Part shown: positions 3,839 to 5,771 of the stretch, piece after piece
How positions within the stretch are numbered: the stretch's first letter is position 1
How the letters are laid out: the number at the start of each line of letters is the position of its first letter
NCBI RefSeq assembly: GCF_000027125.1
Contig: NC_017627.1
Source: Escherichia coli 042
Lineage (GTDB): Bacteria > Pseudomonadota > Gammaproteobacteria > Enterobacterales > Enterobacteriaceae
DNA length: 64,000 nucleotides
Strand: one strand, 5' to 3'
The notes under the pieces: generated by a model
Databases searched by the model: none
What the model was told of the DNA's origin: nothing
Seen by the model: only the letters and a program-made list of their open reading frames with translations
Translations under genes and position numbers: made by a program

Positions 3839-3992
3839 AAAGCTCCCCCGAAGACACCTTTCGGATATTCAAGAGGTACTCAATAGATGTTTTTTACTCT
3901 ATACCGGTCCTGCATGTCAACAGAATCTGAAATACCGATAATATATCCATAAGATATCCGAATGAAGTGGTCAACAAAAACTGGCCACCGAG

Positions 3993-4811
3993 TTAGAGTT
4001 TTTTCCAGTATCGATTTTCCGATTCGTTTGGGGGTAACCCACCGTTATATTCGTGCGGTCTTAGTGCGCTGTAATATCCAACGATATAATCCGTTATGGC
4101 GTGAGCTGCCTCGCTGAAGCTTACGTAACCCACCACCGGTATCCATTCGTTCTTCAGACTTCTGAAGAGGCGTTCCATTGGGCTGTTATCCCAGCAATTT
4201 CCGCGCCGGCTCATACTCTGCCTGATCTGGTATCGCCACACTAACTGCCGGAACTGCCTGTTCGTATAATGACTGCCCTGATCGCTGTGGAACATCACCC
4301 CGCCGGGCTTACCACGGGTTTCCCATGCCATTTCCAGCGATTTCATGGTGAGCCTGCTGTCCGGCGAGAACGACATGGCCCAGCCCACTGGTTTTCTTGC
4401 GAACAGGTCGAGAACAACGGCGAGGTACGCCCAGCGCTTACCCGTCCGGATATAGTTCACATCACCGCACCACACCTGATTTGGCTCGGTCACGGCGAAC
4501 TGCCGTTCAAGGTAGTTAGGGATAGCAACATGTTCATGACCACCACGTTTATACCGGTGAGTCGGCTGCTGACAGCTGACCAGCCCCAGCTCTTTCATGA
4601 GCCTGCCAGCAAGCCAGCGTCCCATCTGGTAGCCTCTCCGGGTTGCCATTGTGGCGATGCTTCTTGCTCCGGCCGAACCGTGGCTGATGCCATGTAGCTC
4701 AAGTACCTGACTGCGTAATACAGCCCGCCTGCCGTCTGGTTTTTCAGGACGGTTTTTCCAGTATCTGTAGCTGCTGCGATGAACCCCGAACACATGGCAG
4801 AGTGTGACCAC
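3993..4811 (-). CDS. IS911 OrfB (integrase-core domain)
   Basis: 272-aa ORF ..[44 protein letters not shown].. Confidence 0.85.
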
Positions 4812-4879
4812 AGGATAATGCGCTCTGAGTTTCCCGATTATCGAGAACTGTTCAGGGAGTCTGACATCAAGAGCGCGGT

Positions 4880-5434
4880 TGTAGATTCAATCTGTCAATG
4901 CAACACCCCTTTCAATTATCTCTTTCGGTGTTTTGAACTTCAGTGTATTTCTCGGTCTGTTGTTTAGCTGAGCAGCAACCAGATCTAGTTCATGTTGAGT
5001 ATATTGGGCAAGACATGTCTTTGCCATTCTGTTGGCTCGGTTATTAGCATCAACAGCTTTGTAATAGCGTCTGCCCCGATTACGCTGAACTTCACGTGAG
5101 ATCGTCGAAGGACTGCGATTCAGCGCAGTAGCTATCGCACGAATGCTCATTTTGGCTGACAAACCAGCTCGTATCTCCTCGCGCTCAGACAGTGTCAGGT
5201 GAGCTACAGCCCGCTTATGCTCATGGGGTTTTATGCCGCCAGTATCCCTTAACATAGTGAAGATCGTTCCGGGTTTTGAACCCAGGATATTCGCTATTTC
5301 ACTGAAGCCTGTTCCGTTCTTCCATAGTTCAAAAACAGAGGCTTTTTCCTCTGCTGTAAATGTTCGTCTCATTCAAAAAACCTCCGCAACCCCATGTTTT
5401 CACATAACTGTTGCGTTGACCAATTGAATCTACA
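4880..5434 (-). mobile_element. IS30 remnant with an internal deletion, inserted in IS911 orfA
   Basis: IS30-type inverted repeats TGTAGATTCAAT at 4880 and the complement ending at 5434; transposase reading [26 protein letters not shown]...RANRMAK|TCLAQYTQHELD.. lacks the central catalytic region. Confidence 0.8.
4887..5372 (-). pseudogene. IS30 transposase, internally deleted (161 aa retained)
   Basis: N- and C-terminal IS30 transposase segments fused in frame; middle missing. Confidence 0.8.
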
Positions 5435-5697
5435 GTAGCCTTTTTTAATATTTCATTCTCCATTTCAATGCGTTGTAGCTTTTTCCTCAGCTCACGTATT
5501 TCGATTTGTTCTGGTGTTATCGGAGAGGCTTTTGGTGTTTTGCCCTGACGCTCATCACGCAGTTGTTTGACCCATCTTGTCATTGTGGAAAGGCCAACAT
5601 CCATAGCTTTGGCGGCATCTGCCACCGTGTAGTTCTGGTCAACAACCAGTTGAGCGGATTCGCGTTTAAACTCTGCGCTGAAATTTCTTTTTTTCAT
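5435..5697 (-). pseudogene. IS911 OrfA truncated by the IS30 insertion
   Basis: [88 protein letters not shown] then the IS30 end. Confidence 0.75.
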
Positions 5698-5771
5698 TGG
5701 AGCACCTGTGTTGTTCTGAGGTGAGCATATCACCTCTGTTCAGGTGGCCAAATTCAGTGTGCCACTTCAGG

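Follow-up and report, generated by a model that had tools for sequence, protein, structure and literature searches.

A probable three-layer transposition fossil, IS911 interrupted by an internally deleted IS30, on an enteroaggregative Escherichia coli virulence plasmid

What becomes of an insertion sequence (IS) once another one has landed in it, and in which order the damage was done, are the questions raised by a short locus of Escherichia coli 042 (contig NC_017627.1), considered here within a stretch of 64,000 nucleotides referred to as the window. On the minus strand, window positions 3963-5769 (1807 bp) are occupied by an IS911 that is interrupted by an internally deleted IS30. An earlier description, hereafter the original prediction, had placed IS911 outside and IS30 inside between these two boundaries, with a 555-bp insert with clean ends, a 2-bp duplication, a lost catalytic core, an insertion point inside orfA and lengths that add up exactly, from which a stepwise reconstruction was held to be feasible. 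According to the data presented below, the structure is very probably a three-layer transposition fossil, in which an IS911, the insertion of an IS30 and a 666-bp deletion within this IS30 would have succeeded one another on an AAF/II-type pAA plasmid. As such, it belongs to the ordinary mobile-element debris of a virulence plasmid of enteroaggregative E. coli and is of a kind already known.

The 1807 bp are made of 335 bp (IS911 nt 1-335), the 555-bp insert and 917 bp (IS911 nt 334-1250), the IS30 remnant and IS911 sharing one orientation. Excision of the insert together with one copy of a duplicated AC gives back an IS911 of exactly 1250 bp (1250 + 555 + 2 = 1807). The features are listed below in window coordinates, all on the minus strand, with the basis of each call in brackets.

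3963-5769: whole nested structure (sequence ends, alignments, length arithmetic)
3963-3998: right terminal inverted repeat of IS911, imperfect, about 36 bp, the established length of the IS911 repeats (comparison of both ends)
3963-4879: IS911 nt 334-1250, the distal part with orfB and its rve integrase core (100% match to the reconstructed IS911)
3993-4811: open reading frame (ORF) in the orfB frame, which is open from 3993 up to the IS30 junction (ORF list; rve/rve_3 on the equivalent gene call of a related contig)
4878-4879: copy of the AC target-site duplication at the right end of IS30, AC being read on the minus strand (flank comparison)
4880-5434: IS30 deletion derivative, 555 bp, IS30 nt 1-412 and 1079-1221 (alignment)
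4880-4905: right inverted repeat of IS30, 26 bp (self-match of the 26-bp left and right repeats, 23/26)
4887-5372: 161-aa in-frame remnant ORF (ORF list, alignment, Pfam)
5022-5023: deletion junction, at which IS30 nt 412 and nt 1079 meet after the loss of 666 bp (alignment to K-12 IS30A)
5329-5697: chimeric orfA', 122 aa, 87 OrfA residues followed by a 35-aa tail from the left end of IS30 (ORF list)
5409-5434: left inverted repeat of IS30, 26 bp (first 216 nt identical to a full-length IS30)
5435-5769: IS911 nt 1-335, comprising the left inverted repeat, the promoter region and 87.7 codons from the start of orfA (100% match to the reconstruction)
5435-5436: copy of the AC target-site duplication at the left end of IS30 (flank comparison)
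5440-5446: A AAA AAG heptamer for -1 frameshifting, IS911 nt 324-330, with the IS30 insertion point 5 nt downstream (simulated -1 slip in the reconstruction)
5734-5769: left terminal inverted repeat of IS911, about 36 bp (end comparison)

Regarding the outer element, the window reads TGAAGTGGTCAACAAAAACTGGCCACC from position 3963, and its reverse complement reads TGAAGTGGCACACTGAATTTGGCCACC from position 5769. These ends are imperfect terminal inverted repeats of the TG...CA type, with TGAAGTGG...GGCCACC at both of them. In the reconstructed element, orfA encodes 100 aa from a start at nt 73, overlaps orfB as in IS911, and a simulated -1 slip at the A6G heptamer (nt 324-330) yields an uninterrupted OrfAB fusion of 382 aa; in the actual sequence, this arrangement is broken by the insert. 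Besides, uninterrupted 1250-bp matches exist, and the reconstruction is 99.4% identical in one piece over 1250 bp to such copies (e.g. NZ_CP091839, 1551337-1552586), the elements used for this comparison being those that carry a transposase annotated by RefSeq as 'IS3-like element IS911 family'. Since the reconstructed frames are open and match uninterrupted copies this closely, the host IS911 was intact and presumably active at the time IS30 hit it, and has not otherwise decayed since. In the same line, gene calls equivalent to orfB on a related contig (L007) carry rve/rve_3, and a 122-aa gene call with HTH_Tnp_1, corresponding to orfA', is present on the related contigs L007 and L008.

The inner element is delimited by IS30 ends (TGTAGATTCAAT...) at 4880 and 5434, where both 26-bp terminal inverted repeats are present and intact, and it is flanked by AC/AC on the minus strand. 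Such 2-bp repeats are stated in PMC9333248 to be a hallmark of IS30 insertion into hot spots. The insert aligns to K-12 IS30A (1221 bp) over nt 1-415 and 1079-1221 with 99.3-99.5% identity; strictly read, the join lies between nt 412 and nt 1079, with 411/412 and 142/143 positions identical in the two retained parts and an in-frame loss of 666 bp, that is 222 codons. Both parental breakpoints lie within short A-runs (GCGAAAAGG and CTAAAAAGA). The remaining 161-aa frame fuses transposase residues 1-118 to residues 341-383. While the rve domain is found by Pfam at residues 229-320 of the full 383-aa IS30 transposase, the remnant has no rve match and shows the helix-turn-helix (HTH) family HTH_38 in two stretches. 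Compared to K-12 IS30A and its InsI protein, it differs by two substitutions only, R52H and K364N, both non-synonymous and both outside the inverted repeats. With 555 bp and a 161-aa ORF devoid of rve, in place of 1221 bp and a 383-aa DDE (rve) transposase, the insert has to be seen as a deletion derivative and not as a functional IS30 member. No other IS911 or IS30 sequence was detected within the 64-kb window. The original prediction is thus borne out as to the two families, the outer boundaries, the clean ends of the insert, the AC duplication, the loss of the catalytic core and the sum of the lengths.

The duplicated AC corresponds to IS911 nt 334-335, in codon 88 of the 100 codons of orfA as the insertion point inside orfA had implied, within the orfA/orfB overlap and 5 nt 3' of the slippery A6G heptamer. 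Production of the OrfAB transposase of IS911 reportedly depends on a -1 frameshift at this heptamer, for which an RNA structure further downstream acts as a stimulator, a finding said to go back to Polard et al. in 1991 and Rettberg et al. in 1999. The IS30 insert parts the heptamer from both orfB and the stimulatory RNA structure, so that OrfAB cannot be made, and only the chimeric 122-aa OrfA' is left in its place. The nested element would consequently be inert, as neither IS911 nor IS30 can supply its own transposase, and each of them could move only with transposase provided in trans by an intact copy elsewhere.

E. coli K-12 provides a known case of this nesting without the deletion. In MG1655, where the annotation reads IS911A / IS30A / IS911A-1, a full 1221-bp IS30 shares the site, the orientation and the AC duplication of the window's insert, and PMC9333248 describes an 'IS911 ... 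interrupted by the insertion of IS30A'. This K-12 locus, in the CP4-6 prophage (270206-272190), resembles the window in that IS30 follows nt 335 and that 20-22 nt on each side of the junctions are identical; unlike the window, it has a full-length IS30 with its 383-aa transposase, and its host element, truncated at the 3' end, reaches only 91-93% identity to the IS911 of the window and is nearer to ISEc52. Closer relatives are the IS911::IS30 composites of NZ_CP077647, NZ_CP032992 and NZ_CP071024, which share the IS911 allele at 98-100% as well as site, orientation and duplication, and which differ from the window by their full IS30 (2470-2472 bp in total) and by their surroundings, the flanks being different in each of the five composite loci examined. 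Composites of this size, covering the whole query, were found in 413/5426 complete E. coli genomes and also on plasmids, including Enterobacter IncHI2, and at three of these full-length loci (L001, L004 and L006) the left part of IS911 is identical to that of the window over 335/335 positions. The intermediate that a stepwise reconstruction calls for, a full 1221-bp IS30 at the same site, has therefore been found in K-12 as well as in hundreds of other replicons, which supports the original prediction on this point too.

As for the deleted form, the junction joining nt 412 to nt 1079 (the 412/1079 junction) has no contiguous match in 5426 complete E. coli genomes, 72,556 PLSDB plasmids, GTDB representatives and JGI metagenomes. 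For the exact 161-aa protein, annotated 'IS30 family transposase', 26 contigs are on record; 24 carrying contigs were read and ten were retrieved for alignment to the window. All ten are colinear with window positions 2499-8352 (aafA, aafD, the nested IS and a parA-like gene) at 99.9-100% identity, and the deleted allele was found at one locus only, in some 25-30 near-identical draft contigs of AAF/II pAA plasmids. It is thus a real allele, fixed in the AAF/II pAA lineage, with no sign of having moved. Moreover, carrier contigs assembled from short reads continue across all 1.8 kb of the structure, their breaks being restricted to other repeats, which suggests that the carrier genomes are without any other IS911 or IS30 copy and that the element would be stranded in them.

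Two observations were made alongside these searches. Five junction-probe rows at the 'at least 80%' level in the complete E. coli genomes proved to be two-piece matches to other IS30 copies. A few chromosomes (e.g. that of E. coli Nissle 1917, 5180366-5180913) show a spacing of 548-683 bp between the two halves of the junction probe, where a full IS30 should give about 786 bp; these copies of the IS30 family may be other internally shortened variants.

The following order of events is proposed. A functional 1250-bp IS911 of the IS3 family would first have existed. IS30 would then have entered it by its ordinary mode, directed to a 'hot spot' and not to inverted repeats, duplicating the AC at nt 334-335; orfB would thereby have been cut off from the frameshift site, with no OrfAB transposase as a result. 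The resulting composite is probably older than its arrival at the present locus. Finally, a 666-bp internal segment of IS30 would have been lost in situ, in the plasmid lineage, between two A-rich sites, removing the DDE core and leaving both ends and the 161-aa HTH-only frame. This order is favoured by parsimony, because the full-length nesting is widespread and the deleted junction is confined to one locus.

The opposite order, in which the deletion came first and a 555-bp derivative, comparable to a miniature inverted-repeat transposable element (MITE), was mobilised in trans and inserted independently into the IS911 hot spot, appears improbable. It would account for the two intact 26-bp inverted repeats and for the perfect flanking 2-bp duplication, and a second hit is plausible at a site that was struck independently several times, opposite orientation included. 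However, the E. coli, PLSDB, GTDB and JGI searches revealed the 412/1079 junction nowhere else, and the retrieved contigs with the 161-aa ORF all represent the same locus. In addition, IS911 copies with a left part identical to that of the window carry a full-length IS30 at the same site, and a full-length IS30 is likewise present at the orthologous parA-flanked locus of CP056609. The likeness to MITE-like elements and to the KP type of P element, namely retained terminal repeats, target duplication and an in-frame DNA-binding remnant with rve lost, is limited: unlike them, the element of the window is a single copy at a single locus with no evidence of mobilisation or of a regulatory role, and the multiple dispersed copies of a MITE family are lacking, the junction being absent elsewhere and all carriers representing one locus.

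Several data nevertheless weigh against the insertion of IS30 into IS911 followed by deletion in situ, at least in this simple form. To begin with, the succession of insertion and deletion is itself a matter of parsimony. Next, the 412/1079 junction displays no clean microhomology to the parental K-12 sequence, because of which the deletion can only be ascribed by deduction to illegitimate recombination by the host or to replication slippage. Furthermore, the related AAF/II plasmid CP056609 has the same parA-like flank and the same IS911 right-end junction, followed by a full-length IS30, but this IS30 has the opposite orientation and abuts IS600 at its far end; no orthologous locus combining both flanks with a full IS30 in the same orientation was found, CP056609 sharing the left flank only. 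Finally, the 3-bp direct repeat that a simple insertion should leave is missing around IS911, its flanks being GAA (3960-3962) and GGT (5770-5772). As this repeat is a hallmark of fresh insertion and not of family membership, its absence points to a later rearrangement beside other IS debris. In this respect, the right flank of IS911 (about 5866-6270) is a 3' fragment of another IS3-family element and, given this fragment and the missing repeat, the arrival of IS911 at its present spot cannot be reconstructed as a simple insertion. A structured RNA or a group II intron remnant does not explain the flank either, since an Rfam scan of window positions 3000-7000 (E<=0.1) returned zero hits. The fragment itself is 90-94% identical to annotated IS3-family transposase genes, contains an in-frame stop and is separated from the IS911 end by about 96 bp (5770-5865).

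A distinct proposal concerns the reason why the remnant persists rather than the way it arose. By analogy with Tn5 Inh, IS1 InsA and the P-element KP repressor, the HTH-only protein might have been kept as useful, binding IS30 ends and damping transposition in a dominant-negative manner. In favour of this, the open frame retains its native start and upstream region and still encodes both HTH motifs, the allele has gone to fixation in the plasmid lineage, and binding of the IS30 ends is made plausible by work of 1990 quoted in PMC7780238. This role nonetheless looks very improbable. A deletion would be in frame by chance in 1 case out of 3, the two substitutions (R52H and K364N) being both non-synonymous fits relaxed constraint, and in carriers that are near-clonal (99.9-100%) fixation says nothing on selection. 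Besides, the hosts, whose draft assemblies traverse the element, seem to be without any other IS30 to regulate, and a scan of window positions 4800-5800 for sigma-70 promoters and terminators gave counts at the shuffled background, so that no promoter stands out. A wider proposal, that the remnant might be an expressed, trans-dominant binder of IS30 ends suppressing IS30 in the AAF/II pAA lineage and that the -1 frameshift window common to IS911, ISEc52-like elements and IS600 may in addition be a conserved natural hot spot by which IS30 time and again disables IS3-family elements, is likewise improbable as a whole: its regulatory half is a pure possibility, while its hot-spot half draws fairly good support from independent hits in both orientations.

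Nested repeats being a classic spot for misassembly, an assembly or chimera artefact might also be invoked, but its likelihood is next to nil in view of the expected 2-bp duplication at both junctions and of the ten independent isolate and metagenome contigs, colinear at 99.9-100%, that show the identical structure and exclude it.

Coming back to the reading in which IS30 entered IS911 and was later deleted in place, the insertion site deserves attention in its own right. An IS30 lies at the homologous frameshift-window position in each of four settings: in IS911 proper (window 5435-5446); in the ISEc52-like 'IS911A' of K-12 (L003 2522-2563 and 3743-3784); in K-12 IS911B, where IS30D has the opposite orientation and follows ...AAAAAGGCTAC; and in IS600, after ...ATATTAAAAAAAGCAAC, on the left-repeat side of K-12 IS30D and on the right-repeat side of the CP056609 IS30. 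The junctions at L017 7430-7484 and 8656-8720, and at L021 4971-5025 and 6197-6281, belong to these settings as well. The occurrences in the four settings cannot all be one event and, judged from these junction sequences, they suggest a natural IS30 hot spot, consisting of an A-run, then G, then GCTAC or GCAAC, in the frameshift windows of IS3-family elements. Hybrids of the order IS911, IS30, IS600 also occur, which suggests recombination between IS30 copies. The literature search on this remnant, or on an IS30 hot spot in IS911 or IS600, brought up only the legend of the K-12 map.

Comparisons with other IS30 targets were made as well. The left arm of the IS911 target, TATTAAAAAAGGCT[AC], and the ydbA target of K-12 IS30C, TGTTAATAAAGGTA[CT], are alike at 10/14 positions. 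With the LHS hot spot of lambda, the best ungapped match of the IS911 target is 14/26, in the register of the reported insertion point; this likeness is suggestive only, 14/26 being about what chance gives as the best of some 350 positions.

Additional observations concern the relatives that have kept a full IS30. The K-12 'IS911A' (L003 2207-4191, equal to K-12 270206-272190) is 96.8-97.1% identical to elements annotated ISEc52, and because it is closer to these than to the IS911 of the window, its label is a loose one; an uninterrupted copy of this allele exists at 99.9% identity (NZ_CP107720). On the Enterobacter hormaechei IncHI2 plasmid NZ_CP071024 (L005), the 2472-bp composite is flanked by TTT/TTT (L005 2498-2500 and 4973-4975), which is compatible with transposition of the composite as a unit on its IS911 ends with transposase in trans, a chance match having a frequency of about 1 in 64. 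In two pAA-like plasmids, the left flanks of the composite (L001 2971-3000 and L006 2471-2500) belong to an IS256 fragment and are reverse complements of each other, a sign that an inversion took place with the IS911 end as one of its endpoints.

In terms of significance, the locus offers a clean, fully reconstructable case of one insertion sequence that disabled another and then decayed, of little import in itself. It lies on a virulence plasmid of enteroaggregative E. coli, in an IS-rich region beside the aaf (AAF/II) fimbrial genes. The 412/1079 junction together with the 161-aa ORF provides a specific marker for the AAF/II pAA plasmid lineage. Annotations of this ORF, currently recorded as 'IS30 family transposase', should avoid presenting it as a functional transposase. 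The repeated landing of IS30 at the same frameshift-window codon may, for its part, interest students of IS30 target choice.

Regarding the wider surroundings, the sequence of the window is that of an enteroaggregative E. coli virulence plasmid of the IncF-type pAA kind, with aafD, aafA, aggR and aap just downstream of the nested element and long tra-like ORFs further on. A direct repeat of 202 bp, 100% identical, occurs twice 15 kb apart (2552-2753 and 17516-17717), each copy adjoining a 225-aa ORF on the minus strand (3161-3838, parA-like, and 16777-17454, respectively), and this repeat is where short-read contigs of related plasmids break off. More families of direct repeats, of at least 300 nt and 84-99% identical, are present at 53829-54128, 59399-59698 and 62772-63071, at 59740-60039 and 63111-63410, and at 10092-10391 and 13150-13449.
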